This document shows positions 5,660-38,621 of a stretch of DNA of 64,000 nucleotides, piece after piece. How positions within the stretch are numbered: position 1 is the stretch's first letter; the number at the start of each line of letters is the position of its first letter. Where the stretch lies: contig CAYTYR010000007.1 of assembly GCA_964441745.1 (NCBI GenBank), forward strand, positions 1 to 64,000. The letters run 5' to 3'. Source of the DNA: an uncultured Clostridia bacterium (GTDB lineage Bacteria > CAYTYR01 > UBA6262). The position numbers were made by a program, and so were the translations under genes. The notes beneath the pieces are model-generated. The model saw only the letters and a program-made list of their open reading frames with translations, did not search any database and was not told the DNA's origin.

Positions 5660-6582
5660 TAGAATTTCAAGCCGGCAATAATAATCGATTAGATGTGTTA
5701 TTGGCGGAAAAACTTTCCCAGTCCCGGACCTCGGCGCAGAAAATAATCCTTGAGCAGGGTGTTTGCCGGATAGCGCCCAGCCGTAAAATAATAAATAAAA
5801 CCGGCTATAAAACCAGCGTTGGAGAAATATTCCAGGTAGTCCTGCCGGAGATTAAAGAACTACCGCTGGCAGCTGAAAATATACCATTATCTATCTTATA
5901 TGAAGATAAAAGCCTGGTGGCGCTGGATAAACCTGCTGGCATGATGGTACATCCTGTCGGACGGATCAAGACCGGCACACTGGTCAACGCTCTTTTAACC
6001 CATTGTCAAGATCTTTCGCAGATTGGCGGTTGTATCCGTCCGGGAATAGTGCACCGGTTGGATAAGGATACCAGCGGGGTGATGATCGCAGCCAAGACCG
6101 ATGCTGCCCATCAGCATCTCTCAAAACAGTTTGCCCGCGGACAGGTAAAAAAAACCTATCTGGCTTTGGTCCATGGCCGGTTGACTGGCCGCAAAGGCTT
6201 GATCAATGCCAGGATTATGCGCGGCACTGCTGACCGCACTAAAATGAAAATATCTGCCACTGCCGGACGTAACGCGATCACTGAATATGAAGTAGTGAAA
6301 CAGTACCAGAATATGGCTCTGCTCCGGTTATTCCCTCGGACCGGCCGTACTCATCAAATACGGGTACATCTGGCTTTCATCGGCCATCCGATAGTTGGGG
6401 ACTGGAAATACGGGCAGGAACTGCCTGGACATAAAGCTGGACGGCAGCTATTGCATGCTGAAAGTATTTCTTTCATCCATCCAGAGACGAAAGAACATCT
6501 CCGCTTCCAGGCTGAGCTGCCAGCAGATTTTAAAGACGTCCTGATAAGTCAGGACGTCTTGATTACACCGATTTCAAAATAG
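5635..6582 (+). CDS. RluA-family pseudouridine synthase (RluD-like)
   Basis: GIVHRLDKDTSG, TGRTHQIRVH; N-terminal S4-like RLDVLLA. Confidence 0.93.
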   Translation: MEKTKKQIIEFQAGNNNRLDVLLAEKLSQSRTSAQKIILEQGVCRIAPSRKIINKTGYKTSVGEIFQVVLPEIKELPLAAENIPLSILYEDKSLVALDKPAGMMVHPVGRIKTGTLVNALLTHCQDLSQIGGCIRPGIVHRLDKDTSGVMIAAKTDAAHQHLSKQFARGQVKKTYLALVHGRLTGRKGLINARIMRGTADRTKMKISATAGRNAITEYEVVKQYQNMALLRLFPRTGRTHQIRVHLAFIGHPIVGDWKYGQELPGHKAGRQLLHAESISFIHPETKEHLRFQAELPADFKDVLISQDVLITPISK

Positions 6583-10142: not shown

Positions 10143-10880
10143 ATGGATAATGAACTGAAGCAGGTGGTCAGGGATTTTAAGGCTTATCTGGAACAGGAGC
10201 AAAGAAAAGGATTGAAGGCTGTGCCGCTGTCTGCCCGGATAAATAAGCCTGGGAAAAAAACGGCCGCCGCTGATCCAGCCGACAGTAAAACACTGGAACA
10301 ATTGCAGCAGCAGTTCGCTGCTTGCCAGAATTGCCCATTAGGAAGCACCAGGAACAAATTTGTTTTTGGCGAGGGCGATCCGCAAGCCAGGTTGATGTTT
10401 ATCGGGGAAGGACCGGGTTTTGATGAAGACCAGACTGGCCGGCCTTTTATCGGCAAAGCCGGTCAGTTACTGACTAAGGCGATAGAAACAACCATTAACC
10501 TGAAACGCGAAGAAGTCTATATCGGTAATATCGTAAAATGCCATCCGATGAAAGACCCAAGTCAACCAACGATACGCGGTAATGACCGCCCGCCAACAGC
10601 GGAAGAAATGCAGGCCTGCCTGCCGCTCATCACCCGGCAAATAGAGCTCATTAAACCGGATATTGTTTGCCTTCTGGGCCGGACGGCAGCCCAAGCTATA
10701 CTTCAATCCACTGCCGGTATTCATGAATTGCGTAATAAATTCCACACCTTGAATTTTGCCGGCAAAGATATTGAATTTATTGCCACTGTCCATCCTGCCA
10801 GTTGCCTGTATGATCCTGCCAATAAGAAATATGTCTGGGAAGATTTCAAAAAAATTAGAGATTTTTTGAAAAGAGCCTAA
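10143..10880 (+). CDS. udg: Family 4 uracil-DNA glycosylase
   Basis: CQNCPL Fe-S cysteines, GEGPG, NIVKC, HPA motifs. Confidence 0.92.
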   Translation: MDNELKQVVRDFKAYLEQEQRKGLKAVPLSARINKPGKKTAAADPADSKTLEQLQQQFAACQNCPLGSTRNKFVFGEGDPQARLMFIGEGPGFDEDQTGRPFIGKAGQLLTKAIETTINLKREEVYIGNIVKCHPMKDPSQPTIRGNDRPPTAEEMQACLPLITRQIELIKPDIVCLLGRTAAQAILQSTAGIHELRNKFHTLNFAGKDIEFIATVHPASCLYDPANKKYVWEDFKKIRDFLKRA

Positions 10881-22197: not shown

Positions 22198-23304
22198 ATG
22201 TCCACTGAAAAAGTTCTTATTCTCTATGCTCCTTGCGGCGCCGGCCATAAAAAGGCGGCGGAAGCCCTGGCCGGATATTTTAGCCAGCAGGCTAAAATAG
22301 CAGTGGAAATTAAAGATATCCTGGATTTTGCTCCTGCCTGGTACCGCTTTATCTACCGCGACGGATATTACTTGCTCATCAAGAGATTCCCTCAATTATG
22401 GTCATGGCTATATCAAGCGACAGAACTTGGCTATAAAGAAAATCTTCTTACCCGGATCATCCGCACAGTGGAGAATTCCTTTTTTGGCTTATTTTACCGC
22501 TACTTGGAATCAAATAAACCAACAATCTTGATTACCACCCATTTTCTGCCTATATCGCTATTAAAGGATAAACAAAGGGATTTTAAATTTAGCGCTGTGG
22601 TTACTGATTATTTTCCTCACAGTTTATGGGTCAGCGCCCAGGTTGATCAATATTTTGTCGGTTCCGAAGAGGTCAAACAGGTTTTGTTGAAGAAAGAAGT
22701 CAGCGCAGAAAAAATTACCGTCACCGGGATACCGATCAAGCCAATTGACCTCAAAGGATCTGCCAAGGAAGAAAAACGCCAAAAAGCCGGACTAAGAGCT
22801 GACCTATTTACGGTGCTGATCTTAAGCGGCGCCGGAGGGGTTGGGGACCTGTCTTCAATCATTAATAGTTTGCAGCAATTAGCCGGTAAAATACAGGTGA
22901 TCGTTAATACAGGCTTGAACCAGCAATTACAGGCCAGAATGGTGCAAGAAGCGAGTCGCGGCAAATTAGCGATCCAGGTAATCGGCTTTACTGATAAAAT
23001 TTATGAATATTACGCGATTAGCGATTTGGTGATCACCAAACCGGGAGGACTGACTGTGACTGAGGGATTGAATTTTGGGCTGCCGCTGGTGATGATCAAT
23101 GCCATCCCCGGCCAGGAAGAGGAAAATGCCAATTTTGTGGTTAACAAAAAAGCTGGGCTCCTGGTTAAGGAGATGAAACAAATACCGGAAATTATTGCAG
23201 GTTGGTTGGCAGACCCGGCGCAACTGACCGCTATGCGGCAACAGGCTTTAGCCGCAGTGCCACATGATAGTAATGAAAGAATATTCCATAAGATTATTAC
23301 TTGA
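22198..23304 (+). CDS. MGDG synthase/UgtP-like glycosyltransferase (GT28)
   Basis: GAGHKKAAEAL, ITTHF, TGIP, ITKPGGLT, IPGQEEEN. Confidence 0.9.
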   Translation: MSTEKVLILYAPCGAGHKKAAEALAGYFSQQAKIAVEIKDILDFAPAWYRFIYRDGYYLLIKRFPQLWSWLYQATELGYKENLLTRIIRTVENSFFGLFYRYLESNKPTILITTHFLPISLLKDKQRDFKFSAVVTDYFPHSLWVSAQVDQYFVGSEEVKQVLLKKEVSAEKITVTGIPIKPIDLKGSAKEEKRQKAGLRADLFTVLILSGAGGVGDLSSIINSLQQLAGKIQVIVNTGLNQQLQARMVQEASRGKLAIQVIGFTDKIYEYYAISDLVITKPGGLTVTEGLNFGLPLVMINAIPGQEEENANFVVNKKAGLLVKEMKQIPEIIAGWLADPAQLTAMRQQALAAVPHDSNERIFHKIIT

Positions 23305-23421
23305 CAAATACCGATTAAAAGCGTATATAATAGTATATCTGAGGCTATTATGTGCGATTGGACTAACCAAAGCATTAGTTAAAAACTAATGTTTTTTTTT
23401 GTTTCGCACGGGAGGTTGGTC

Positions 23422-23922
23422 ATGAAGAAATTAATTATTGTCTTTATTTGCTTGGTTATCACGCTATTGATGCTGGGCGCGGCAAAGGCCTATGCTTTTC
23501 ATTATACTACTGCTAATAGCACCCCGTATTCTGCCTTAACCGGCAAGAGTAATAACCTGGAATCTCCCAATAATGAAACTAACCTATATACATTTGACTT
23601 ACTGTCTTTCCTCAAGATCGAACAAAGTGATTTTGGCTCACTTCAAATGTATAATGGTAAAGTATATATCCGCGAAGGCCTAACCTACAAAATTTACCAA
23701 TTAGATCCTCATACCGGTCAGTATGCCAAGTCTGTTTCTGCTGATAATCTTGGCGCTGAAATGGCTGGCTTATTAAACCAGATGTTCTCCCCTCAGGAAA
23801 ACAAGCAAGTATTGGAAAAAATTAATATTAACTACACAGAATTAATACAGCTGGCACTTAATTTGCTGGCAGTAATAGTGTGGCTGCCAACAGCCTATAT
23901 ATCTGCATCTTGTAAAGATTGA
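23422..23922 (+). CDS. Hypothetical exported protein with C-terminal hydrophobic segment
   Basis: GGAGG RBS, MKK signal peptide ending AYA; upstream TTGACA at 23301. Confidence 0.65.
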   Translation: MKKLIIVFICLVITLLMLGAAKAYAFHYTTANSTPYSALTGKSNNLESPNNETNLYTFDLLSFLKIEQSDFGSLQMYNGKVYIREGLTYKIYQLDPHTGQYAKSVSADNLGAEMAGLLNQMFSPQENKQVLEKININYTELIQLALNLLAVIVWLPTAYISASCKD

Positions 23923-23967
23923 TTTTGAATGACTAAATAGTTTGCAATTTGAGAGAAGCATATTAAC

Positions 23968-24049
23968 TAAAAACCCCGAAGGGGCAGAGTTCCACGGACT
24001 TTACGTGGGTATCTACTTCTTATTTACACACTTTTTGTTGACTTGTCAA
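23968..24049 (-). ncRNA. Candidate ~50-nt RNA with own promoter and terminator
   Basis: Minus strand TTGACA (24049-24044)-17 nt-TAAATA; CCACG/CGTGG hairpin, then CCCC-TTC-GGGG-TTTTT. Confidence 0.4.
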
Positions 24050-24143
24050 AGAAACATATACATTTACATTTAAAATAACGGATGTTAAAATAATAGAGTA
24101 TGGTAAAAAAACTATTAAGCATAAATGGGCCGCTGAATAATTA

Positions 24144-24441
24144 TTGACAAAAATATGGTTATAAGCTATAAAGATACCCTTTAACCCGGAATTTGCAATA
24201 GGATTTGGAATTCGTCGAAAAATCGCTTTGTCTTTTCGTCTAAAAAATCGCGAACATACCGCTGCGAGTATGCTCGCACTTTTTTGAGACGAAAATACTG
24301 CGCGCTTTTCCGTCTCGGTTCGTCAAACCTATTGTAAAATCCGGGTTTAACCAAAAGGGTATTTTTATTTTATAAGGAGTCTTCATGTTAGCCAAAGTAT
24401 TAACTAGCGCGGTATTGGGAATAGATGCCTATATTATTAAG
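24144..24441 (+). repeat. Direct repeat of comM promoter, leader and first 19 codons (copy 1)
   Basis: Matches 25238-25535 (offset 1094); identical 24167-24404. Confidence 0.95.
24184..24346. mobile_element. 163-bp palindromic MITE-like element (copy 1)
   Basis: TIRs ACCCGGAATTTGCAATAGG / CCTATTGTAAAATCCGGGT, flanking TTA direct repeat, internally palindromic. Confidence 0.7.
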
Positions 24442-24474
24442 ATTGTTTCAGCGGAAAAAGCAAAAAAAGATTGA
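24385..24474 (+). pseudogene. comM: comM 5' fragment (29-aa ORF)
   Basis: MLAKVLTSAVLGIDAYIIK identical to ComM residues 1-19, then IVSAEKAKKD*. Confidence 0.9.
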
Positions 24475-24499
24475 CAATACAACTAAACAGTAGTATATT
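24471..24499 (+). promoter_or_regulatory. Promoter of TA operon with possible operator
   Basis: TTGACA-17 nt-TATATT; imperfect dyad ATACAACT/AGTAGTAT within it. Confidence 0.6.
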
Positions 24500-24514
24500 A
24501 ATAATGGAGAGAAA

Positions 24515-24871
24515 ATGCCAAAATGTGAATGTTGGTATTATACAATGAGTTCTGGTAAATCACCGGTAAAAGAATTTGTCCAATCTTTAGATGATCAGGC
24601 TAAAGCCAAATTTTACTTCAAAAAAGGATTGCTGGAAGAATTTGGCTGGAGATTGCCGGCACCGCATGCCAAGCACATCGGCCATGATATTTATGAGTTG
24701 AGATTTCAAGGAGTGGTGGGACAGTTAAGGGTATTGTATTTTTTCTTTACTGGTAATAAAATAATATTTACTAACGGCTTTATTAAAAAGACTGACAAAA
24801 CGCCAAAAAATGAGATAACCCTGGCTTTAGACAGGAAAAAGGATTTTCTCAATAGAATGACAGAAAGGTGA
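24515..24871 (+). CDS. RelE/HigB-family (Gp49-like) toxin
   Basis: GKSPVKEF, IYELR, RVLYFF, GFIKKTDKTP; toxin precedes antitoxin. Confidence 0.88.
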   Translation: MPKCECWYYTMSSGKSPVKEFVQSLDDQAKAKFYFKKGLLEEFGWRLPAPHAKHIGHDIYELRFQGVVGQLRVLYFFFTGNKIIFTNGFIKKTDKTPKNEITLALDRKKDFLNRMTER

Positions 24872-25221
24872 TGAAGATGAAAAAGAATAAAATACTAAAA
24901 GTAGACGAACACTTAAAAGAAGAAATGAAAAGACCTGTTTTTAAGGAACTCTGCGAATTGGAAGACCAAAAACTCCAGATTGCCAAAAAGATCGTGGGCT
25001 ATCGCATAACCCACAATTTGACGCAAAAGCAGTTAGCAAAAAAAATTAAGGTTAGTCAACAGTACATCTCCAAAATAGAGAAGGGAGAGTTCTTTAATAT
25101 CCCATCCTTGGAGAAAGTACTTGTCCCTTTAGGGTATAAGGTAAAATTGGAAGCTGTGCCATTAAGAGAAAAAACATCCCCCGGTCAACGCCATGTAATT
25201 TATCACTCACAAGTCGCATGA
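24868..25221 (+). CDS. XRE-HTH antitoxin (HigA-like)
   Basis: LTQKQLAKKIKVSQQYISKIEKG; overlaps toxin stop. Confidence 0.88.
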   Translation: MMKMKKNKILKVDEHLKEEMKRPVFKELCELEDQKLQIAKKIVGYRITHNLTQKQLAKKIKVSQQYISKIEKGEFFNIPSLEKVLVPLGYKVKLEAVPLREKTSPGQRHVIYHSQVA

Positions 25222-25237
25222 TCATTTTAAGTATTTG

Positions 25238-25535
25238 TTGACAAATATATACATATAAGATATAAAGATACCCTTTAACCCGGAATTTGCAATAGGATTT
25301 GGAATTCGTCGAAAAATCGCTTTGTCTTTTCGTCTAAAAAATCGCGAACATACCGCTGCGAGTATGCTCGCACTTTTTTGAGACGAAAATACTGCGCGCT
25401 TTTCCGTCTCGGTTCGTCAAACCTATTGTAAAATCCGGGTTTAACCAAAAGGGTATTTTTATTTTATAAGGAGTCTTCATGTTAGCCAAAGTATTAACCA
25501 GCGCAGTTTTAGGCATAGATGCTTATATTATCAAG
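25238..25535 (+). repeat. Direct repeat copy 2 (functional comM promoter and leader)
   Basis: TTGACA 25238-17 nt-TATAAA 25261; matches 24144-24441. Confidence 0.95.
25278..25440. mobile_element. 163-bp palindromic MITE-like element (copy 2)
   Basis: Identical by eye to 24184-24346. Confidence 0.7.
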
Positions 25536-27011
25536 GTGGAAGTGGATATCAGCAAGGGATTGCCAGCTTTCAATATTGTTGGCTTGCCGGATACCAGCGT
25601 GCGGGAAAGCCGGGATCGGGTCATGTCCGCAATCAAAAACAGCGAATTGAAATTCCCGACTAAACGCATGACCGTAAATATGGCGCCGGCGGATATCAAG
25701 AAAGAAGGGGCCAGTTTTGACCTGGCCATTGCTATTGGCATACTGGCAGCCAACGGAGAAGTAAGGAAAGATAAACTAAAAGACTATGTTTTCCTGGGAG
25801 AATTAGCCTTGGATGGCTCTATCCGGCAGGTACGCGGGGTTTTATCTATAGCCTTGGCCATGCGCCAAGAAAATATCCAGGGCCTGATCGTACCGGAACA
25901 TAACCAGAAAGAAGCTGGGGTAATAGAAAACCTGAAGGTGTATCCAGTGACTCATTTGCGGCAGGTAGTGGACTTCCTGAACGGGACAGGCAAACTGCCT
26001 GAGTATAAGTTTAACTTGCAGGAAGCCTTTGAACGGAATAATCGCTATGATATTGATTTCAGCGATGTCAAAGGACAAATGTTCGCTAAACGGGCTTTGG
26101 AAGTGGCTGCTGCCGGCGGTCATAATATTCTTTTGATCGGCAGTCCTGGATCAGGGAAGACGATGCTGGCTAAAAGGTTGCCGACAATTTTACCGGATAT
26201 GTCGTTAGACGAAAGCATTGAAACTACTAAGATCCATAGTGTTTCCGGCAATCTGGACGGATTATCATTGGTCGCGACCAGGCCGTTCCGTTCTCCGCAT
26301 CATACGATCAGTGATGTCGCGCTGATCGGTGGCGGGGCATATCCCAAACCAGGGGAAGTGAGCTTATCGCATAATGGGGTGCTTTTCCTGGATGAATTGC
26401 CCGAATTCCACCGCAATGTCCTGGAAGTGCTCAGACAGCCATTGGAAGATGGAGTGGTGACTATTTCGCGGGCAGTGACCAGCCTGACCTATCCGGCCAA
26501 ATTCATGATGGTAGCGGCCATGAATCCCTGTCCTTGCGGCTATTATGGTGATAATAAGCAAGAGTGCCTTTGCTCTGTGTTTAAGATCCAGAAATATCAT
26601 TCTAAAGTTTCAGGCCCTTTACTGGACCGTATAGACATGCATGTGGAAGTGCCCCGGCTTAAGTTTACTGAAATGAGCGCAGACCAACCGGCAGAAAGCA
26701 GCGCGGTGGTCCGGGCCAGGGTAAATCAGGCCAGGGTCATTCAGCAAGACCGTTATCAGAAAGAAAAGCAGATCCATTGTAATGCCCATATGCAACCCAA
26801 ACATCTTAAAAAATATTGCCAGCTTACTCCAGAAAGCCAGGAGTTGCTGAAAAATGCCATCAATAAATTAAATCTCAGCGCCCGCGCTTATGACCGCATC
26901 TTGAAGGTGGCCAGGACCATCAGTGACCTGGACAACCAACCCCAGATACAATCGCAGCATATCGCCGAAGCCCTGCAATATCGCAGCCTGGACAAGAACC
27001 TGTTTGCTTAA
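25479..27011 (+). CDS. comM: ComM/YifB Mg-chelatase-like AAA+ ATPase
   Basis: IVGLPD, GSPGSGKT, RPFRSPHH, FLDELPEF, AMNPCPCG, ARTISDL. Confidence 0.97.
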   Translation: MLAKVLTSAVLGIDAYIIKVEVDISKGLPAFNIVGLPDTSVRESRDRVMSAIKNSELKFPTKRMTVNMAPADIKKEGASFDLAIAIGILAANGEVRKDKLKDYVFLGELALDGSIRQVRGVLSIALAMRQENIQGLIVPEHNQKEAGVIENLKVYPVTHLRQVVDFLNGTGKLPEYKFNLQEAFERNNRYDIDFSDVKGQMFAKRALEVAAAGGHNILLIGSPGSGKTMLAKRLPTILPDMSLDESIETTKIHSVSGNLDGLSLVATRPFRSPHHTISDVALIGGGAYPKPGEVSLSHNGVLFLDELPEFHRNVLEVLRQPLEDGVVTISRAVTSLTYPAKFMMVAAMNPCPCGYYGDNKQECLCSVFKIQKYHSKVSGPLLDRIDMHVEVPRLKFTEMSADQPAESSAVVRARVNQARVIQQDRYQKEKQIHCNAHMQPKHLKKYCQLTPESQELLKNAINKLNLSARAYDRILKVARTISDLDNQPQIQSQHIAEALQYRSLDKNLFA

Positions 27012-27187
27012 TATGCTAGAAATGTCAAATATAGGAAAATCGCTTGACAAAGCACTGTTTTTAAGGCATTTTCTGACTAGAAGTTGCTGGAAGCGTAAAA
27101 TGTGTATTCCCAAGCTTGGAGATGAACACATATTTTATGATACCAGTATCGAGCGGTAAAACCAACAAAATCTACAAAATAACTCTC

Positions 27188-27226
27188 ACCGACCATACAA
27201 ATTAAGTATGGTTGGTTTTGTTTTAT
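27188..27226 (+). terminator. Intrinsic terminator (possibly regulated)
   Basis: ACCGACCATAC-AAATTAA-GTATGGTTGGT followed by TTTGTTTTATT. Confidence 0.75.
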
Positions 27227-27373
27227 TCTTTTATTTAAGGAGTTCATCATTCCAGGTTTAGTAAAGCCTTATTCTTTCTTGTTCTGCTTCTGGGTATTGT
27301 CTAGTATATGGGTAATCTGGCAATTTTATTTAGTAAGAGAAAATCAATATCTCAAAAAGGGTGGCAAATAAAA

Positions 27374-27859
27374 ATGAAGATAAATCTTATAAAAAAGAAT
27401 ATTTTTATGGCGCTTATTTGTGGTATGCTTTTATTCTCAGTAATTGCTCAAGGAGCAGAGTCGGCAGTTGAAAGGCCATTATCGCCACCAGTTAATATTG
27501 AGTTTAGTATAGATAGTACTCCTAAGTTAGGCGAAGAAGTAACATTGAGACTCACGATAACGCCTCTTGAGGATATGCACGCGGAAATAAGTTGTCTTTT
27601 ACCTGAAGGAGTAGAAGTTATTAGAGAAAAGGGAATAATGGTGCGGCCATATCGGGAAAGATTTCATACAGCACAGAAATTGCCAATGTACAGGCAGGCA
27701 GTAGTTTTATCCGTGGGGCCATTGAAAGGTGGTATAACAAAGGAGTTTGTATTTAGGGCAAAGGTTAGTAAGGTAGGGCAATATGAACTGATAGCTCAAT
27801 TAAAAGCGCTGGCAAAATGGGGAGTTAAGGAAGAATTCTTAGTATTAAACATTGAGTAA
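27374..27859 (+). CDS. Secreted hypothetical protein (Ig-like beta-rich)
   Basis: Signal peptide ending AQG; beta-strand pattern. Confidence 0.65.
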   Translation: MKINLIKKNIFMALICGMLLFSVIAQGAESAVERPLSPPVNIEFSIDSTPKLGEEVTLRLTITPLEDMHAEISCLLPEGVEVIREKGIMVRPYRERFHTAQKLPMYRQAVVLSVGPLKGGITKEFVFRAKVSKVGQYELIAQLKALAKWGVKEEFLVLNIE

Positions 27860-27873
27860 AAATTGGAGGATAA

Positions 27874-29910
27874 ATGCTTCCCATCAACAATAAATGTATT
27901 TTCAGGAACAAGGTTCTGGCAAGTATTTTTATTACCTTTTGTTGCTTTTTCTTCTTATCTATATGTAAAGTCTGGGCAACAGAATATACAATCAAACCGA
28001 TTACCGATAATAATTACTATAATGATGCTCCTAGTATAAGTAATGGCCAAATAGCCTGGCATGGCTACGATGGCAATGACGATGAGATATTTTATTATGA
28101 TGGTAGCCAGATTACGCAGCTTACCAATAATATTTACTTAGATTGTTATCCCATTATAAGTAACGGCCAAATTGTCTGGTTTGGAAATAAAGGCAATGAT
28201 CTGAACAATGAGATATTTTATTATGATGGTAGTCAGATTACACAGTTTACTAATAATAATTACCATGATTCTTGTCCCAATATCAGTAATGGCCAAATCG
28301 TCTGGCAAGGCTACGATGGCAATGACGATGAGATATTTTTTTATGATGGTAGCCAGATTAAGCAACTTACCAATAATGATTATTACGATTCTAATCCCAG
28401 TATCAGTAATGGCCAAATTGCCTGGTATGGATATGATGGCAATGACTATGAGATATTTTTTTATGATGGTAGTCAGATCACACAACTTACCAATAATGAT
28501 TACAATGATATCGGCACTCCCAGCATAAGTAATGGGCAAATCGCCTGGATAGGCTACGATGGCAATGATTATGAGATATTTTTTTATGATGGCAGTCAGA
28601 TTACACAACTTACCAATAATGATTACGATGATTATAATCCCATTATCAGTAGCGGCCAAATAGTCTGGGAAGGTGGTACTGAAAGCAATTACAATGACTA
28701 TGAAATATTTTTCTATGATGGCAGCCAGATTAAACAGATTACCAATAATAATTACTATGATGGTAGTCCCAGTATCAGTAATGGCCAAATTGCCTGGATG
28801 GGCTACGATGGTAATAACTATCAGATATTTCTCGCCACATCAGATCCTATACTCAAGAGTGTAGAGATTTATTATCGGCATGATTTAGGCAATAATGGTC
28901 TTCCAATTGCTGGATATCCAACCTCGGCTACACCAGTAACTGTTAAAGCAATAGTATGGGCTGATGATGGGAAAGATACGAAACCGTATACGCAGCAAGA
29001 TGAGGATGAAATAGTAAATGACGGAAAGTGGTATAATACAGGGAGCGAGGGATCGCAGGCCGGCAAATATTCGCCTGATTTAACTGTTCCTGTTTTGAGC
29101 GTTTCGGATGTTCCCAAAATATATAAGTGGCCCGATTCTTGGCAGCAGCCAGATTTTGAATGGGCAAGCTTATTTAATTACGCGAGTAGTCCCACTTCTG
29201 CTGTCCCTGGGGAAGGAATGAATCGCAATTACGTCTACAATAAATACGTTAATTTATTATGGGGATCATGGGGAGCAGATAATATAACATTACCTGAAGG
29301 TAATTGGAAATTTAATGTAAAAGCTTACCTAAACAAAGGTACCCCCGAAGAACAATTTGTTGTATCATCAGATACAGAGTGTGCGACAAGAGTAAGTGTG
29401 TTAGATAGTAATGCGCCAGTTGATTCAAATTTAAAAAATTATTTAAAATGGATAACGGCGTATTACGATGTTCCTTATGAATGGGGTGGATATTGGTTTG
29501 GTGGAAAAGAAGGTAAAGATGTAGGTGGCCATGATATCAATGAGGGATATGGCGTTGATTGTTCAGGCCTAGTTAGTATAGGAGCGAAATGGGCAGGATA
29601 TAATTGGTATCCATGGCGCGCTAATGCAACAATGTTTGCATATGGTCCCGATGCTAAGCCTAATACTTCCGATGACAACTACTATTCTATAAGAATAAGC
29701 CCCAGCGATCTTAAGCCGGGAGACATACTTAATAAAGCTGGTAAACACGTAGTTACTATTTATGGTATAAGAAGTAGAGATAATATGGGTAATCCAAAGA
29801 TAGTCACTATTATTTCAGCGGAGCCCAATCCTTATAACAAGGTTCTAATGCAAGATAAAGATATAGCAGTTTATTCTACATTCCAAGCGAGAAGGCTTGT
29901 AACGCATTAA
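27874..29910 (+). CDS. Secreted protein: seven ~40-aa beta-propeller-like repeats plus C-terminal NlpC/P60 domain
   Basis: Signal peptide; 7x IS(N/S)GQI(A/V)W; VPYEWGG, GVDCSGLV, LKPGDIL, KHV. Confidence 0.8.
   Translation: MLPINNKCIFRNKVLASIFITFCCFFFLSICKVWATEYTIKPITDNNYYNDAPSISNGQIAWHGYDGNDDEIFYYDGSQITQLTNNIYLDCYPIISNGQIVWFGNKGNDLNNEIFYYDGSQITQFTNNNYHDSCPNISNGQIVWQGYDGNDDEIFFYDGSQIKQLTNNDYYDSNPSISNGQIAWYGYDGNDYEIFFYDGSQITQLTNNDYNDIGTPSISNGQIAWIGYDGNDYEIFFYDGSQITQLTNNDYDDYNPIISSGQIVWEGGTESNYNDYEIFFYDGSQIKQITNNNYYDGSPSISNGQIAWMGYDGNNYQIFLATSDPILKSVEIYYRHDLGNNGLPIAGYPTSATPVTVKAIVWADDGKDTKPYTQQDEDEIVNDGKWYNTGSEGSQAGKYSPDLTVPVLSVSDVPKIYKWPDSWQQPDFEWASLFNYASSPTSAVPGEGMNRNYVYNKYVNLLWGSWGADNITLPEGNWKFNVKAYLNKGTPEEQFVVSSDTECATRVSVLDSNAPVDSNLKNYLKWITAYYDVPYEWGGYWFGGKEGKDVGGHDINEGYGVDCSGLVSIGAKWAGYNWYPWRANATMFAYGPDAKPNTSDDNYYSIRISPSDLKPGDILNKAGKHVVTIYGIRSRDNMGNPKIVTIISAEPNPYNKVLMQDKDIAVYSTFQARRLVTH
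27985..28830 (+). repeat. Coding tandem repeat, ~120-129 nt unit, 7 copies
   Basis: Recurring AGTAATGGCCAAAT..CTGG and TATGATGGTAGCCAGATT. Confidence 0.9.
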
Positions 29911-29920
29911 GGGGGGAACG

Positions 29921-31900
29921 ATGAGAATTTCTAAGTTTTATAAGAAGATGAAAGTTTTGTTAGTATTGATCATCCCTGTCCTTATGACTGCAAAGGAAGG
30001 ACTTTCAAAAGAAGTGCTGTCTTCTCTGCCATATGGGGATGAAGATGCTCAAATTAATTTGTATATACCTGACATAGAAAATGTGGAAGGAGCAGAACCA
30101 GCTGGTATATTTTGGTATTACGCAGATTCTGTACATGGTAATATATACATAGCGGAGGTTAATGTAATAAAGCAATATAAGATGAATGGAGAATTTGTTT
30201 CAAAAACAGCTGCATTAAGCGATTCTCCCATTATTTCCTTTGTTGTTGATAATGAACAAAATATATATGTTATCCATGGAGGCAGAGCACAAAACCTGTC
30301 TAAAATAAAAACAGACGGCACTATTTCCTGGACTAAAACACTGTCGGCGATTGTGTCTGATAGTAATTATGATATGATGGGTCCTGGCATTAATTTGGAT
30401 AACATTGGGAATACTCTTTGTGAGGTTAATTATAAGAAAGCCCCAGAAGATTATGAAAAAAAATGTCTAAAAATAGATAAAAGTGGTAATTTTATTGAGG
30501 TTGTCCCAAGCGATCATATAGATAAGAATGGTAATTATTATATATTTCATCCGTCTTATTCGAATGGGAAACTATATGGTACAGAACTTTTTGGAGACAA
30601 CTACGTTGGTGATTATGAATCGGGAACAAGTGTAGAAATATTGAACTCAGATCAAAAATTCGTTAAAAATATTACAATATTACTTCCAGAAGAATTTAAG
30701 CAATATGAGAATTACCGGGGAATTGATCAATGGAACATCGATTTTGAAGGGAGTATATACGGAACAGCGTATGTAAGGCGCGATTCGGATAAACAAACCA
30801 TAATAAAAGGAAACGATTTTTTCATAGGAGATGATAAAATTGTTTATAAGTATGACCAAGACGGAAAGCTTATATCTCAGATAACTTTCCCTGGATATCC
30901 TATAAAGATGAATAGGCAGATACAAGTGGACGAAAACGGAAAAATCTATTATCTCCAGTTCTATGCAGAGCATTTAGATGTAGTTAAGGTGTCTTCTGAC
31001 AATATTGCTCCTCAGACGAATATATCAATCACGCCCTTCCCCAATATAGCTGGCTGGAATAACAGCGATATTACTATAACGTTAACCGCTACAGATAATG
31101 AAGGCGGATCCGGAGTAAAAGAAATCCACTATACACTGACTGGCGCAGTGAACGAAGATAAAGTAATCCCAGGACAAACTGCTCAATTAGTATTAAAGAC
31201 AGAGGGGACTACTACCATATCATATTATACCCTGGACAATACTGGCAATAAAGATGAGACGAAATCTCTCATCCTTAATCTTGATAAGACCGCCCCTTTA
31301 GTTTCTCTTAATTTAGAGCCATACAAGATAAAACTGCCTTTCCTGCATGAGACACACCACTTTTATACACCATTCTTCTATAAACTGACTTATTCGGCTA
31401 CAGATACTCTTTCCGGTGTAAAAGGATCGAAAACGGGACTAATAACTCCTAATATCAATGGCTTTAAGACCCAGTTGATTAAAGGGAAACAACTCCATAT
31501 TACTGTTAATGTAGACAAAAAGCATGTGATTATCATTGCCCCAAATCCTCAGCAGGTTTTAGATCAGTTAAAGAGTAATCTTCTTCTAATTGATAACAAT
31601 CAGGTTATGCATTTAAACCAGAGGCCAAAAGCAAAAGGGTGGATGATAAACAAGACCGACAAATTCCTGGTTATATCTGCACCTTCAATTGTATTTAAAG
31701 CCTTGGCCAGCGATTATGCTGAGAACCTAACAGCCAAAGAGTTAAAGTATGAAAAGAAGAAAATACCTATGCCGGATCATTGTAAGCTTATGATTAACAG
31801 AAAAGAACTTTCTCAAGAGGAATTAGAAGATTTAATGGAAGATATGACCGTTGATTCCGATACTATGAAAGAGATACATAAGAATTACAAGGTTAAATAA
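29921..31900 (+). CDS. Secreted protein with propeller-like N-terminus and Ig-like module
   Basis: Signal-like N-terminus; DNIAPQT..GWNNSDITITLTATDNEGGSGV..EGTTTISYY..DKTAP Ig-like signature. Confidence 0.7.
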   Translation: MRISKFYKKMKVLLVLIIPVLMTAKEGLSKEVLSSLPYGDEDAQINLYIPDIENVEGAEPAGIFWYYADSVHGNIYIAEVNVIKQYKMNGEFVSKTAALSDSPIISFVVDNEQNIYVIHGGRAQNLSKIKTDGTISWTKTLSAIVSDSNYDMMGPGINLDNIGNTLCEVNYKKAPEDYEKKCLKIDKSGNFIEVVPSDHIDKNGNYYIFHPSYSNGKLYGTELFGDNYVGDYESGTSVEILNSDQKFVKNITILLPEEFKQYENYRGIDQWNIDFEGSIYGTAYVRRDSDKQTIIKGNDFFIGDDKIVYKYDQDGKLISQITFPGYPIKMNRQIQVDENGKIYYLQFYAEHLDVVKVSSDNIAPQTNISITPFPNIAGWNNSDITITLTATDNEGGSGVKEIHYTLTGAVNEDKVIPGQTAQLVLKTEGTTTISYYTLDNTGNKDETKSLILNLDKTAPLVSLNLEPYKIKLPFLHETHHFYTPFFYKLTYSATDTLSGVKGSKTGLITPNINGFKTQLIKGKQLHITVNVDKKHVIIIAPNPQQVLDQLKSNLLLIDNNQVMHLNQRPKAKGWMINKTDKFLVISAPSIVFKALASDYAENLTAKELKYEKKKIPMPDHCKLMINRKELSQEELEDLMEDMTVDSDTMKEIHKNYKVK

Positions 31901-31935
31901 TCAAAGGTTTATATAAGAAAAGTATCAAATGGCTA

Positions 31936-32364
31936 TCAGCCAATACTAAAATATCTATCTACCCTTTGGAAAAATATTCCATTGGGTAGCCTTTTATTTT
32001 GCTCCCAATGCGCCAAAGTAGTAGGATCAATATGAACAAGTTGGCCAAGTTGTCGTAAAGTCAAGCTTCGGAACTCCCTGGCTCTTTTTATCCTTTGCCC
32101 CAGTGTTTTAACCTTGGGATCGTAGGGCCAATAACCTAAGAAATCCATTATAACTTTGAGGTATTGACAGTTTGGGTAGTTGCGTTGCCTTTCCCAATTA
32201 ATAATAGTAGAGGCATTTGTACCTAAGATTTCCGCTAACTCCTTTTGTTGGAGCTTTAGGTCCATACGCTTCTTTTTTATGTGTTCTCCAATGGTTTTTG
32301 GGTATTGGGGGTAGTTTAAGGGCAAAGGTCGTTTAACCTTAAGTGTAAAAGCACAGTATGGCAA
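31936..32364 (-). CDS. Tandem XRE helix-turn-helix protein
   Basis: TIGEHIKKKRMDLKLQQKELAEILG and TLGQRIKRAREFRSLTLRQLG; TTG start next to the island junction. Confidence 0.8.
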   Translation of the reverse strand: MPYCAFTLKVKRPLPLNYPQYPKTIGEHIKKKRMDLKLQQKELAEILGTNASTIINWERQRNYPNCQYLKVIMDFLGYWPYDPKVKTLGQRIKRAREFRSLTLRQLGQLVHIDPTTLAHWEQNKRLPNGIFFQRVDRYFSIG

Positions 32365-32372
32365 CGCAGGTA

Positions 32373-32855
32373 TGCCCCTGCGGCTATCATGGGGACAGCA
32401 AGCAGGAATGCTTGTGCTCGGTGTTTAAGATCCAGAAATATCATTCTAAAGTTTCAGGCCCTTTACTGGACCGTATAGACATGCATGTGGAAGTGCCCCG
32501 GCTTAAGTTTACTGAAATGAGCGCAGACCAACCGGCAGAAAGCAGCGCGGTGGTCCGGGCCAGGGTAAATCAGGCCAGGGTCATTCAGCAAGACCGTTAT
32601 CAGAAAGAAAAGCAGATCCATTGTAATGCCCATATGCAACCCAAACATCTTAAAAAATATTGCCAGCTTACTCCAGAAAGCCAGGAGTTGCTGAAAAATG
32701 CCATCAATAAATTAAATCTCAGCGCCCGCGCTTATGACCGCATCTTGAAGGTGGCCAGGACCATCAGTGACCTGGACAACCAACCCCAGATACAATCGCA
32801 GCATATCGCCGAAGCCCTGCAATATCGCAGCCTGGACAAGAACCTGTTTGCATAA
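32373..32855 (+). pseudogene. comM: Duplicated comM 3' fragment (from CPCG to stop)
   Basis: Matches 26529-27011 (offset 5844); identical 32421-32851. Confidence 0.95.
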
Positions 32856-32879
32856 TAGGAAACAGTAAAAGAGAAAAAA

Positions 32880-32995
32880 GGGTAAAGGTTGTAGAAGTAG
32901 GTCGTAAGTTTTTGGTTTAAGCCTATCAACCATAGACCTCAGACCAAACTTACTTCCAAAACCTGCCCCTAATAACTGTTCCTTGTTTTGACAGA
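32880..32995. repeat. Family A copy 2
   Basis: GTAGAAGTAGG...AGACCTCAGACCAAACTTACTTCCAAAAC. Confidence 0.85.
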
Positions 32996-33011
32996 CTGGC
33001 TTACTTTTATA

Positions 33012-33040
33012 TTGACACAAGCTATTAGTTATGATAATAT
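33012..33040 (+). promoter_or_regulatory. Sigma70-type promoter
   Basis: TTGACA-17 nt-TAATAT with TG extension. Confidence 0.6.
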
Positions 33041-33085
33041 TTCCTCATGAAAAGTTGTCAAATTTCCGCAAAGGAAGGTGTGGCA

Positions 33086-33631
33086 ATGAAAAAGATATTT
33101 GTTCTTGGTCTGGTGGTGTGTGCCATGTTCTCGCTAGCTGGTTATCTGCAGGCAGCAGGAAATGCCGAGCATTTTAACGTTGAGGAAAAAAAGGTAAACA
33201 TCACTACTACGATTACCGGCGATTTGAACTTGGACAAGGAAAAACTACCCCCGTTTGAAGTGGAAATAATCCCCTTGAGAAAATTTAAGCATGATGCAAT
33301 TATAAAAGGAATGGCCGATTCAAAACTTGATAAAAACATGATTAGCGACAATGACCATGTAATAATAAATGGCGGATCGAAAAAAGGATTTGCCGAAGGG
33401 GATATAGTCCTGATCTTCAAAAAGGGGAGACCAGCTACCGAACGGCTGAATATTGATAAGGTTGGCCCGTCAATGGCAGAAGAGGAAAAGGTATCGCAGA
33501 AAGAAGCAAAGGTAGCAACCAGTATTGGTGACGCCAGGGTGATCAAGGTAGAATCTAATTCCAGCGTTATCCAAATACGGCGTTGCGTGGAAACTGTCGA
33601 GCCGGGTAATTTTGTTAAGATAAAAAAGTAA
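33086..33631 (+). CDS. Secreted hypothetical protein (FlgT C-terminal-like beta-barrel)
   Basis: MKK signal peptide; VIINGGSKKGFAEGD..IGDARVIKV pattern. Confidence 0.6.
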   Translation: MKKIFVLGLVVCAMFSLAGYLQAAGNAEHFNVEEKKVNITTTITGDLNLDKEKLPPFEVEIIPLRKFKHDAIIKGMADSKLDKNMISDNDHVIINGGSKKGFAEGDIVLIFKKGRPATERLNIDKVGPSMAEEEKVSQKEAKVATSIGDARVIKVESNSSVIQIRRCVETVEPGNFVKIKK

Positions 33632-33653
33632 TATATTCAGGTAAGGAGTTCTT

Positions 33654-34037
33654 ATGCTGAGAAAACTTTTTTATTTGGCGGTTATCCTGTTTGTCTGTAT
33701 TTCTTTTTACCGTCAAATATTAGTGAAAGCGCAGGAATATGTTGATCAGCATGCGCAGGAAGCCTGGGCTCCGAAAATGCAGCTCAATATAGGGAAAGCG
33801 TATTCCTTTACCAGAAATTATGATGAGGCTGAGAGAACCTTCCTGCAGTTGAAGAAAAAGTACCCGAAAAGCCCGTATGCGGCCAAGGCTCAATATATGA
33901 TCGGCAGTATCTACGAAACTAAGGAAGATTACCAGCGGGCCAAGGCAGAGTATGAAAAATTCATTAAAGAATATCCCAAAGATGATTATTATAGAAAAGT
34001 CGATGATAAACTCAGGGTCCTGTCCTTTTTCCAGTAA
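33654..34037 (+). CDS. TPR protein (BamD/CpoB-like repeats)
   Basis: N-terminal anchor; KYPKSPYAAKAQYMIG and EYPKDDY motifs. Confidence 0.75.
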   Translation: MLRKLFYLAVILFVCISFYRQILVKAQEYVDQHAQEAWAPKMQLNIGKAYSFTRNYDEAERTFLQLKKKYPKSPYAAKAQYMIGSIYETKEDYQRAKAEYEKFIKEYPKDDYYRKVDDKLRVLSFFQ

Positions 34038-34061
34038 AACCCTAAAAAAGAATCCCCAGGT

Positions 34062-34355
34062 ATGATAAATAATTATTTTGGCAAAGTCATTAAGGCCGGC
34101 CTGAAGCGTAATAATGTAAGTTTACGTTGTCTGTCCCGTAGAGTGGGCTTAGATCCTAGCTTCCTTTCCAAGGTTCTGGCTGGTAAAAGGAATCCGCCGA
34201 CGGAAGAAAGAAGCCTGGTGAAGATCGCCCGCTATCTGAATTGTGATGCAGATACGCTGGTCTTATCTGCAGGGAGGATACCCAAGAAATATCAAACTGC
34301 CCGGAATAGGCAGAAATTCTTGGAACTCTTTAGGCAGCTCAATTCTAAAAGCTAA
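34062..34355 (+). CDS. XRE-family HTH regulator
   Basis: SLRCLSRRVGLDPSFLSKVLAGKRNPP. Confidence 0.8.
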   Translation: MINNYFGKVIKAGLKRNNVSLRCLSRRVGLDPSFLSKVLAGKRNPPTEERSLVKIARYLNCDADTLVLSAGRIPKKYQTARNRQKFLELFRQLNSKS

Positions 34356-34453
34356 TAATTACAAGCGCGCCAATTTCTATTTTTGACCAAAGACAGCCTG
34401 GCTGTCTTTTTTGTTTTAAAAATAATTAATTACCGACTAGACTGAGGTCTCAA

Positions 34454-35545
34454 ATGGACAGTTGGATTTTAGTAAATGCGGCGGGGAGTTTAGGCAAGGC
34501 CCGCTTAAAGGGATTGCTGGATTATTATCAAGATCCTGAGCCTGTCTTGAAATGCAGTGAAGAGGAATTGTTAAAAACCGGGTTGGTGGACCGGGGTTTT
34601 ACTAATTCTCTCCGTATCATTAAAAAAACTTTTGATTTGGACCGGGAATATAAGCTGCTGGAGCAGCACAAGGTTAAGATCGTGACGATCAGGGATGAGG
34701 AATATCCGGCTAGTTTGCGGTATATTAGCGGCGCGCCCATCTTGCTTTATATCTCCGGTGAAATAATAAAAGAAGATATTTTTGCCATTGGGGTTGTCGG
34801 GACCAGGAATTATAGCGCTTACGGCAAAAATGTTGCGGCCAAACTAAGCGGGGAATTAGCAGGTAAAGGAGTAACTATAGTCAGCGGTTTGGCCAGGGGT
34901 ATTGACACTTTTGCCCATCAGGCGGCTTTGGGAGCCAAAGGCCGGACTATCGCGGTCCTCGGAGGCGGCCTGGCTGCTTTGTATCCCCCTGAAAACAAGG
35001 CTCTGGCCCGGGAAATAGCCACACATGGCGCGGTAGTCTCAGAATATCCAATGATGGAACAGCCCAGCCGGATCAGTTTCCCCTTGCGCAACCGGATAAT
35101 TTCCGGCTTAAGCCTGGGACTGCTGGTCGTAGAGGCGGATGTGAAATCCGGTTCGCTGATTACAGCCCAGTGCGCGTTGGAACAAGGCCGGGAAGTTTTT
35201 GCTGTGCCAGGTAATATCACTAATGAGTATGCCCGCGGGACAAATCAGCTGATCCAGGATGGAGCCAAGCTGGTAGAAGGATATAAAGATATTATTGAAG
35301 AGATCAGCTGCTTGAGAGAATTAACCCGCCAGAAAAATACCAAGAAGCAAGAATGTTTTGCTTTTCCCATAGATGAACAGGAAAGCGCATTGCTGGATCT
35401 GATCGGCAGTGAACCAGTAAATATAGAAGTCTTAGGAGCCAAGAGCGGCAAATCCGTAAGTCAGTTGTCCGGTATTTTGCTCCAGCTAATCTGCAAGGAA
35501 TTGATCCGGGAAATGAGTGGAAAAAATTATGTCCGAACAATCTAG
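34454..35545 (+). CDS. dprA: DNA-processing protein DprA
   Basis: VVGTR, VSGLARGID, FPLRNRIISGLS, SGSLITA. Confidence 0.96.
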   Translation: MDSWILVNAAGSLGKARLKGLLDYYQDPEPVLKCSEEELLKTGLVDRGFTNSLRIIKKTFDLDREYKLLEQHKVKIVTIRDEEYPASLRYISGAPILLYISGEIIKEDIFAIGVVGTRNYSAYGKNVAAKLSGELAGKGVTIVSGLARGIDTFAHQAALGAKGRTIAVLGGGLAALYPPENKALAREIATHGAVVSEYPMMEQPSRISFPLRNRIISGLSLGLLVVEADVKSGSLITAQCALEQGREVFAVPGNITNEYARGTNQLIQDGAKLVEGYKDIIEEISCLRELTRQKNTKKQECFAFPIDEQESALLDLIGSEPVNIEVLGAKSGKSVSQLSGILLQLICKELIREMSGKNYVRTI

Positions 35546-37742: not shown

Positions 37743-38621
37743 ATGCAAGAACAGATAGAGGCTTTCGGAAAATACCTGGCTTATGAAAAAAATGAAAGCC
37801 CGCAGACGGTACGCAATTACCGTATCGACCTGCAGCAATTTGCCAGTTTTCTGGCAGGAATACAAATCAAATCTTATAACGAGATAAACCACCTCGTGCT
37901 CAGGCAGTTTCTGGCTGACCTCAACCAAAAGAAATACCAGAAATCAAGTATTGGCCGGAAAGTAGCGGCTTTAAAATCTTTCTTTAAATTTCTGCAGAAG
38001 AAGAAATACCTGGAAAATAATCCGGCTAAGATATTGCACGCGCCAAAACAGGATAAGAAATTGCCTAAATTCCTGGAAGTGGCTGAAATGATGCAATTAC
38101 TGCAGGCCCCCGGCGATAGCGGTTTTAAAGCCTTACGGGACCGGTCGATCCTGGAAACATTATATTCCACAGGAATACGAGTAGCTGAGCTCACTGGTCT
38201 TAACCTGGAAGACATTGATTTTTTAAGCGGCCTGGTCAGGATCCGCGGTAAGGGCGCTAAGGAAAGAGTGGTCCCGATCGGGGAAAAAGCCCTGGCTATT
38301 TTATACCGCTACCTGGATGAAAGAGCCGTGATTAGCCGTGAAGCGAAAGCGGTGTTTATAAATTATCATGGCCGCAGGATCACTGACCGGAGCATCAACC
38401 GGCTGATCGATTTTTACATCAGGAAAACGAGTGTCACCAAAAAGATCAGCGCTCATGTGCTCAGGCATACTTTTGCCACTCATTTATTAAATGCCGGCTG
38501 TGACTTGCGCTCGATCCAGGAAATGCTGGGACATAACAGCCTGGAAACAACACAGAAATATACCCATGTCACTATGGAAAGACTGAAAAAAGTTTACGAA
38601 AAAAGTCATCCGAGAGCTTAA
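37743..38621 (+). CDS. xerC: Tyrosine recombinase XerC
   Basis: TGIRVAEL, HVLRHTFATHLL, LGH, TTQKYT; dprA-topA-xerC synteny. Confidence 0.92.
   Translation: MQEQIEAFGKYLAYEKNESPQTVRNYRIDLQQFASFLAGIQIKSYNEINHLVLRQFLADLNQKKYQKSSIGRKVAALKSFFKFLQKKKYLENNPAKILHAPKQDKKLPKFLEVAEMMQLLQAPGDSGFKALRDRSILETLYSTGIRVAELTGLNLEDIDFLSGLVRIRGKGAKERVVPIGEKALAILYRYLDERAVISREAKAVFINYHGRRITDRSINRLIDFYIRKTSVTKKISAHVLRHTFATHLLNAGCDLRSIQEMLGHNSLETTQKYTHVTMERLKKVYEKSHPRA

Follow-up and report, generated by a model that had tools for sequence, protein, structure and literature searches.

Partial copies of both comM ends and two inserts around an intact comM gene in an uncultured Clostridia bacterium

AbaR-type islands are Tn7-like transposons. 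In Acinetobacter, these islands consistently disrupt comM, and they have been linked to a conflict over natural transformation in the available text of PMC11441513. Large serine recombinases (LSRs) use genes of the same kind, as homologues of Mg-chelatases and ATP-dependent proteases are the target of 12.4% of the predicted site-specific LSRs in the accessible portion of a survey (PMC10083194), and phage WO sr1 integrates in the Mg-chelatase gene of Wolbachia according to the extracts available of PMC9203015. At the icd gene of E. coli, the element e14 (and likewise phage 21) leaves its target intact via an alternative 3′ end, the displaced native 3′ fragment (icdC) lying beyond the element; as the consulted part of PMC13626634 has it, the two ends differ chiefly by silent changes, and loss of e14 recombines icd with the icdC fragment. 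In this study, we analyzed a 64,000-nt stretch of an uncultured Clostridia bacterium (hereafter the window; assembly GCA_964441745.1, contig CAYTYR010000007.1, positions 1–64,000), in which an intact comM stands between partial copies of its own 5′ and 3′ ends, with cargo between the gene and each copy. The locus represents an uncommon form of known events and probably records two separate insertions, one at each end of comM, either of which would have left part of that gene end behind in duplicate.

Compared with the LSR elements described in the available parts of PMC10083194 and PMC9203015, the window has the same target gene; those elements keep their recombinase and split comM, whereas in the window the recombinase and the left attachment site (attL) are missing and comM is complete. 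With the AbaR-type islands it shares comM as an insertion hotspot and the tie to a transformation conflict (PMC11441513, in the text available), but comM is disrupted there and intact here, and nothing Tn7-like was found in the window. As in the icd case, an intact target gene, an element, and a displaced copy of the gene 3′ end are all present. However, no element-encoded integrase was found among the open reading frames (ORFs) of the island or of the window, and the window has no left attachment site, while e14 carries its own integrase and is excised site-specifically. The window also departs from e14 in its serine-recombinase-type junction, in a repeat that is mostly homogenised, and in an extra duplication on the 5′ side.

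Layout of the comM locus and its support in the assemblies

The window is a housekeeping region of a 2.07 Mb genome in 39 contigs (G000). For comparison, 41 genomes were searched with ComM; the genus sample consists of six genomes (G000–G005), and G030 is a distant genome. In order, the locus comprises a 5′ comM copy (promoter, leader, and the first 19 codons), a toxin–antitoxin (TA) pair, the full comM, a 5.3-kb island, and a 3′ comM copy (the last 161 codons). The working comM (25479–27011, + strand) encodes 510 aa, with all three Mg-chelatase-type domains present by Pfam and the serine-recombinase target (about codons 347–352) unbroken, and its protein is 88–92% identical to those of congeners.

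The 5′ repeat is 298 bp long with an offset of 1094. Copy A (24144–24441, + strand) contains a sigma-70-like promoter, a 5′ leader bearing a miniature inverted-repeat transposable element (MITE)-like hairpin, and comM codons 1–19, and copy B (25238–25535, + strand) contains the promoter, the MITE leader, and the start of the working comM. The two copies match without interruption over at most 238 bp (24167–24404). This run is bordered on the left by an edge with five mismatches in 23 nt, located in the promoter spacer, and on the right by one with seven mismatches in 37 nt, all seven silent, in codons 7–18. The comM match of copy A covers 21 residues (24385–24447), and the frame continues past codon 19 with 10 unrelated codons and then a stop. 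The 3′ repeat is 485 bp long with an offset of 5844, copy 1 (26529–27013, + strand) being the final 161 codons of the working comM with the stop codon, and copy 2 (32373–32857, + strand) being the displaced comM tail, which lies in an open 165-aa frame (32358–32855). Here the exact run is 431 bp (26577–27007); the first 48 nt of the repeat hold 12 mismatches affecting 10 codons, eight of them silently and two with the changes Y/H and N/S, and past the exact core there is one silent difference in the last codon, followed by a common TAATA. The homology drops sharply on all four sides, as 17 of 24 and 15 of 19 positions are unlike beyond the 5′ repeat and 21 of 27 beyond the end of the 3′ repeat. 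Exact repeats of this length cannot have a chance origin. The layout, the repeat sizes, the edge counts, and the intactness of comM given in a preliminary description of the locus were correct to the base.

Three public runs of one study (X1, X2, and X3, the last consisting of scraps) were available as assembled contigs. Across two of these runs, X1 and X2, contigs of 100% identity cover each unique junction: the segment from the copy A edge over the TA pair to the left edge of copy B (X1 record 1 and X2 record 10), that from the copy B edge through comM to the 3′ core (X1 record 2), that from the 3′ core to the island (X1 record 3), and that over the island, the regulator, the tail edge, and the core (X1 record 6 and X2 record 14). 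The depth of the island to that of its flanks is ~1:1, at about 11–13 in X1 and about 6.5–7.4 in X2, and a contig mostly within the 3′ core reaches 16.4 in X2 vs. ~7, that is, about twice. Because X1 may be the source sample, only X2 adds support. A candidate joint from 25694 to 26514 (side 24) fell under the reliability mark of the tool and was disregarded. Just 3′ of the comM tail, at about 32920–32980, a short multi-copy repeat with many differing loose ends in and out has a contig depth of 52 in X1 and 35 in X2, vs. about 12 and 7 elsewhere.

An assembly artefact, with two strain haplotypes or a collapsed repeat misjoined in a metagenome bin, would suit a 39-contig assembly in which the identical repeats of 238 and 431 bp exceed the short-read length and no record runs across them; the identical cores are bridged by no contig, and the order across them rests on the assembly together with depth. 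We nevertheless regard such an artefact as extremely unlikely, since all four unique junction paths are 100% identical in two runs, the insert-to-flank depth is ~1:1 in both, the 3′ core contig has a doubled depth, and the inserts have no replication gene for upkeep as free circles. The strongest argument against it is that the same junction occurs in separately assembled relatives: G002 has the same architecture and junction, and G005 a decayed version.

The right junction of the 3′ island and its relatives

The island (27014–32357) holds three genes for proteins with signal-peptide-like N-termini and a regulator gene, and no recombinase domain. Its right end is capped by the gene of a double helix-turn-helix (HTH) XRE-type regulator (31936–32364, − strand; Pfam), and the 15 nt that adjoin the displaced comM tail, ATGGCAACGCAGGTA (32358–32372, + strand), give that tail an in-frame ATG. 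The joint at 32372/32373, which reads ATGGCAACGCAGGTA/TGCCCCTGCGG, falls at the CPCG site that is conserved in comM. The comM gene of the distant G030 is interrupted at the codons where the window junction lies. A 499-aa protein with Resolvase, Recombinase, and zinc-ribbon domains, i.e., an LSR, is encoded at the left junction there, and at the right junction a double-HTH gene, backed by conjugation-type genes, adjoins the comM tail, the two junctions reading …ATGAATCC/ATGACGTTGTGTTGCC and ATGGCAACGCAACC/CTGCCCGTGCGG. The regulators of the window and of G030, in the same place and orientation, are 35% identical (E 7e-29), the arm motif ATGGCAACGCA is common to the right attachment sites (attR) of both, and the element arm supplies the comM tail with an in-frame ATG in G000 as in G030. 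It is therefore in the codons hit, in the arm motif, and in a homologous HTH regulator at the element end that the window resembles the G030 LSR element. On these comparisons, the right end of the island is a serine-recombinase attR. An attR together with the element's own regulator at the right junction indicates that the original insertion was site-specific.

When the features of LSR elements were looked for in the window, an attR at a conserved comM site with an element-specific arm was found, while Resolvase, Recombinase, and zinc-ribbon domains were absent from the island ORFs and from the 51 other window ORFs, and neither an attL nor a split target was found, the working comM being uninterrupted across the target site. 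The absence of an integrase, which the preliminary description had noted, stands for the present content, as none is found in the island and only an Xer-like gene after topA in the window, but it does not extend to the origin of the 3′ insertion, which the attR and the regulator mark as site-specific. The Xer-type tyrosine recombinase gene (37743–38621), right after topA, is probably housekeeping. The only LSR gene of G000 maps to a different contig (C1), and its product shares 20% identity with the enzyme of G030. In the search for a parent element, regulator alignment over the genome contigs retrieved only G002, G030, and one unrelated arrangement (L050), and the viral contigs gave generic HTH matches only and 0 matches to the 20-nt junction motif.

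Within the genus, the 20-nt junction motif is present in three of the six genomes (G000, G002, and G005), and was not found in G001, G003, and G004 (genome completeness 91–94%). In G004, comM runs directly into the homologue of position 33003 onward, a clean empty site with no island. G002 has a complete comM, and at the end of another contig the regulator gene, the 15-nt arm, and the start of the comM tail; its regulator is 60% identical to that of the window, and a decayed copy is present in G005. The cargo of the G000 and G002 islands is unrelated save for the regulator, and homology at the left end of the island among G000, G002, and G001 is too weak for use. In G005, the regulator is broken and the arm is intact, with just 22 nt of comM behind it (L157, G005:C132, 256–540), and a separate comM tail piece has stop codons, its end TTTGTTTGCCTAA being tandemly doubled (L047, G005:C97, 364–540). 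The G005 comM is followed by a transposase fragment at the contig end, which we take from its motif to be IS1595-like. In a G003 scaffold (L037, G003:C37, about 10230–10270), an NN coincides precisely with the comM recombinase target, flanked on each side by the same 23 nt, and the left piece reads on differently, as GYLG rather than GYHGD; the target site may thus exist in two forms in G003 as well, and a second contig with the GYLG-form sequence was not found.

Similar arrangements were observed in unrelated DNA. In G046, repeats of 595 nt and 90.6% identity surround a 17-kb cargo (L147:1996–2589 and L148:8343–8933), with a related arm (…ACGCAACC/CTGCCC) at the same comM site; the 14 ORFs that separate comM from the tail are all free of recombinase domains, and the cargo includes a Replic_Relax gene and the gene of an RHS-repeat protein. 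G056 (L151) has repeats of 433 nt (88.9%) from codon 366 around a 2.8-kb insert with a single molybdopterin oxidoreductase gene, and in G033 the last 147 nt of comM occur on two contigs (98.6%) with different downstream DNA. A self-match scan of the 5′ side gave four loci with extra matches, and the one looked at, L059, has a decayed 5′ relic (5843–5925) 4.1 kb upstream of comM, the cargo being a GntR-aminotransferase regulator. The phyla around G030, G033, and G026 comprise only nine, two, and 12 genomes, too few for phylum-wide counts.

These arrangements bear on the proposal of the preliminary description that the comM ends are an active landing pad without an integrase, where the repeats serve as homology arms through which cargo circles would pop out by RecA and re-enter by crossover, or be swapped by transformation, with competence kept. 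In favor of this, the cargo of G000 and G002 is wholly different within the same duplicated ends, so that the variable cargo expected among relatives is indeed seen; G004 offers the clean empty site; recombinase-less cargo between an intact comM and an end copy recurs in the unrelated G046, G056, and L059; and a full comM with a separate partial copy occurs in four of 41 genomes, vs. 0 of 41 for topA, although the four are not independent because three of them are congeners. Nevertheless, we consider an active landing pad unlikely. The right junctions in G000, G002, G005, and G046 are attR at one fixed position, which implies site-specific entry, and the loss of integrases from old islands is common and accounts for the same pictures. 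Further, no circle or empty-site joint was seen, in contig data that are incapable of showing one, and a second comM match (E 1e-3), and with it a second 3′ copy, was present in none of 80 more distant metagenome comM loci, 47 of which had at least 3 kb downstream; these loci, at 54–62% identity (best 62%), include no close relative and serve as background only. None of these observations demonstrates capture or swapping through the gene ends at the present day, and the cores are better read as homogenised repeats, with the 5′ core mostly MITE, than as a landing pad made for the purpose. The notion of comM as a known recombinase target was borne out by the available part of the survey PMC10083194. 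A combined version, in which the comM ends are a recurrent exchange site where LSR-left repeats are kept alike by conversion and cargo circles are moved by RecA or transformation, with competence never off and the 165-aa tail perhaps being made and modulating ComM, appears quite unlikely.

With regard to the cargo of the island, ORF 1 (27308–27859) has a signal-peptide-like N-terminus and no family; ORF 2 (27874–29910; 678 aa) has a signal-peptide-like N-terminus and beta-propeller repeats that fall below the NCBIfam cut-off; and ORF 3 (29921–31900) combines a signal-peptide-like N-terminus with an OmpL47-type barrel domain. A terminator-like site lies at 27188–27216. The 678-aa protein contains at least five tandem coding repeats with a period of 120–129 nt (27991–28817), and the Cys/His pattern of its C-terminal part may be NlpC/P60-like.

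Identical cores and diverged edges of the repeats

Comparing copy with copy, the 431-nt core shows 0 differences in G000 and six in G002, while between the two genomes 88 of the 431 positions differ, whichever copy is used. This near-identity inside each genome, together with the divergence between them, indicates gene conversion. The copies of G002 agree fully over the 239 nt nearest the junction and differ on the stop-codon side, and G000 shows the opposite arrangement. The 60% identity of the regulators of G000 and G002 is within the 57–93% of neighboring core genes, so the scar may predate the split of the two species, and in that case repeated gene conversion from the working gene may have kept the tail pristine. 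The G005 relics, with stop codons and a truncated tail, show the fate of a copy that is not maintained. The identical 3′ core may also be a single segment imported from a donor in which the copies were already homogenised. Break repair by copying of the downstream tail was rejected, because the edges would then be identical.

At the edges, seven of seven changes on the 5′ side and 10 of 12 on the 3′ side are silent, whereas a random change would be silent with an expected frequency of ~0.2 (approximate P 3e-5 and 3e-6). That nearly all edge changes are silent indicates that the edges came from functional alleles under purifying selection. Consistently, the edge peptide of the 3′ fragment is exactly that of the G002 and G004 orthologues, and over 48 nt the tail edge has five mismatches to G002 and four to G004 vs. 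12 to its own working gene. The origin of the diverged edges from functional orthologous comM alleles, which had been suggested earlier, is thus upheld by the silent bias and by the peptide match. The affinity of the working comM to G002 and G004 flips at the core boundary, from 88:67 before it to 18:42 after it (Fisher P 0.0005).

The same edges could be read as signs of one block, in which an element brought its own complete comM, with the TA pair upstream of it and the island on the other side, and took the place of the central part of the resident gene, leaving copy A and the 3′ tail as native remains. Both partial-copy edges are nearer to the consensus of G002 and G004, the tail edge with the 4/48, 5/48, and 12/48 mismatches just given, and the 3′ edge of the working comM has unique silent changes. 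A single block is very unlikely all the same, in that the 3′ junction occurs in three species and the 5′ duplication in G000 only, that 347 native codons rather than 19 would remain if a recombinase had inserted the element at codon 347, and that the unique changes at the 5′ edge are evenly divided, two and two.

The 5′ side, the proposed history, and its meaning

On the 5′ side, a 161-nt MITE-like hairpin with TTTAA on both sides (24185–24345 and 25279–25439) makes up 161 of the 238 identical core bp and interrupts a small hairpin in the leader of comM. G002 has it at the same comM site, G003 and G004 lack it there, and the copy in G001 has diverged and is flanked differently. The genome gives 10 matches at about six places, the copies being 71–87% alike, and the hairpin has a fold of −82 kcal/mol (z −8.9). 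The features of a MITE, i.e., shortness, lack of coding, inverted repeats, target duplication, multiple copies, and presence or absence among genomes, were thus all observed, and no partner transposase was identified. An Rfam scan of 23000–34500 returned just two chance-level miRNA matches (E 0.6), both within the MITE, and hence no RNA of an established family. At the comM site, the G000 and G002 copies differ at one of 161 nt, while the two genomes are about 80% alike; this difference, set against ~20% in the surrounding DNA, indicates that the segment moved recently between lineages. The element lies between the comM promoter and the ribosome-binding site and has a central terminator-like stem with a T-run on both strands, and it might damp comM transcription.

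The TA cassette consists of a toxin gene of the Gp49 or HigB-RelE-like family (PF05973; 24515–24871, + strand; Pfam E 1.4e-24) and an HTH_3 antitoxin gene (24868–25221, + strand; Pfam E 9.6e-11) that overlaps it by 4 nt, with a promoter-like site before the toxin (24471–24499) that matches 11 of 12 positions. With a PF05973 toxin and an overlapping HTH_3 antitoxin, both of which score over the curated Pfam thresholds, and one promoter, the pair is a putative type II TA system. A near-identical antitoxin homologue is located directly 5′ of comM in G001, and the antitoxin-comM junction is the same as in the window, the left flank of copy B running into the antitoxin gene without a break, just as in that genome. 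With the window toxin as query, no homologue was found in six other family genomes. In G001 (L038, G001:C158, 320–1312), an IS200-like Y1 transposase with a fused DnaA-C HTH domain stands in place of the toxin, and the antitoxin is orphaned. A second Gp49 homologue (36%) lies outside the window at G000:C7:101531–101836, and a second TA pair, a nucleotidyltransferase with a HepT-like RNase, lies at the window start (747–1608). The promoter spacer of copy A is like the G003 allele, and that of copy B like G002 and G004.

In the history of two separate insertions that we favor, an LSR element would have entered the conserved CPCG-coding site of comM in an ancestor of several species of the genus. 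The 3′ remnant would be its right end, comprising cargo, the double-HTH regulator, and an attR fused to the displaced native comM tail, and the recombinase and the left junction would have been lost. comM is whole because a second complete 3′ end stands upstream of the island; this end may be comM sequence carried by the element or gained later, and joined by homologous recombination. Three routes may be envisaged. The element may have brought a surrogate comM end; it may have had a whole spare comM, which recombined with the native 5′ portion so that attL and the recombinase were deleted; or a defective, aberrantly excised element with the host tail may have re-entered by a single homologous crossover. 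On all three routes, comM sequence moved along with the element, and the structure seen today was produced by homologous recombination. The third route is that of defective specialised transducing phages of the lambda dgal type: these lack the genes of one end of the element and carry adjacent host DNA, they insert by homology, and in the resulting heterogenote the element lies between tandem duplications of the host segment and is unstable by recombination. The window differs from lambda dgal heterogenotes in having no phage genes, and the likeness concerns the supposed origin only.

On the 5′ side, a 1094-bp circle made of the 0.8-kb TA cassette and the comM 5′ region of another lineage most likely inserted by a single crossover, and a crossover within the near-identical MITE region would give the 5′ arrangement with no further steps. 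RecA-type exchange between the direct repeats would then have homogenised their middles, while the short outer edges kept both original alleles. As it now stands, the structure is integrase-independent, and either insert should be precisely losable with comM left intact.

Several points weigh against this history. None of an attL, a recombinase remnant, or the parent element was found in the searches above, and known LSR elements, that of G030 included, split comM with no replacement end. The 5′ duplication occurs in G000 only, and the G002 island is on two contigs, so that its linkage is inferred. The junction in three species could reflect repeated insertion by related recombinases, given the unrelated cargo of G000 and G002. 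As for gene conversion, a recent insertion of DNA of the same lineage would equally yield identical repeats with no need for it, independent recent insertions that each duplicated host-like sequence are an alternative, and core identity may be slightly overstated if the assembler collapsed rare differences. Finally, the affinity shift shows mosaicism, and would do so equally whichever genome is the recombinant.

The usual view of mobile elements in comM is that they turn off natural transformation, through which the cell could otherwise be cured of them. In the window and in at least two unrelated genomes, the island is retained, comM is whole, and the recombinase is gone. This would be a little-described end state of the conflict, in which comM has been restored, the insert has become fixed like ordinary cargo, and the displaced end is kept pristine over species-level time via gene conversion. 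In addition, the locus may illustrate how perfect repeats of such length, bordered by diverged edges, originate in nature, which is relevant to pseudogene annotation, to apparent duplications in metagenome bins, and to predicting which islands can be precisely lost.

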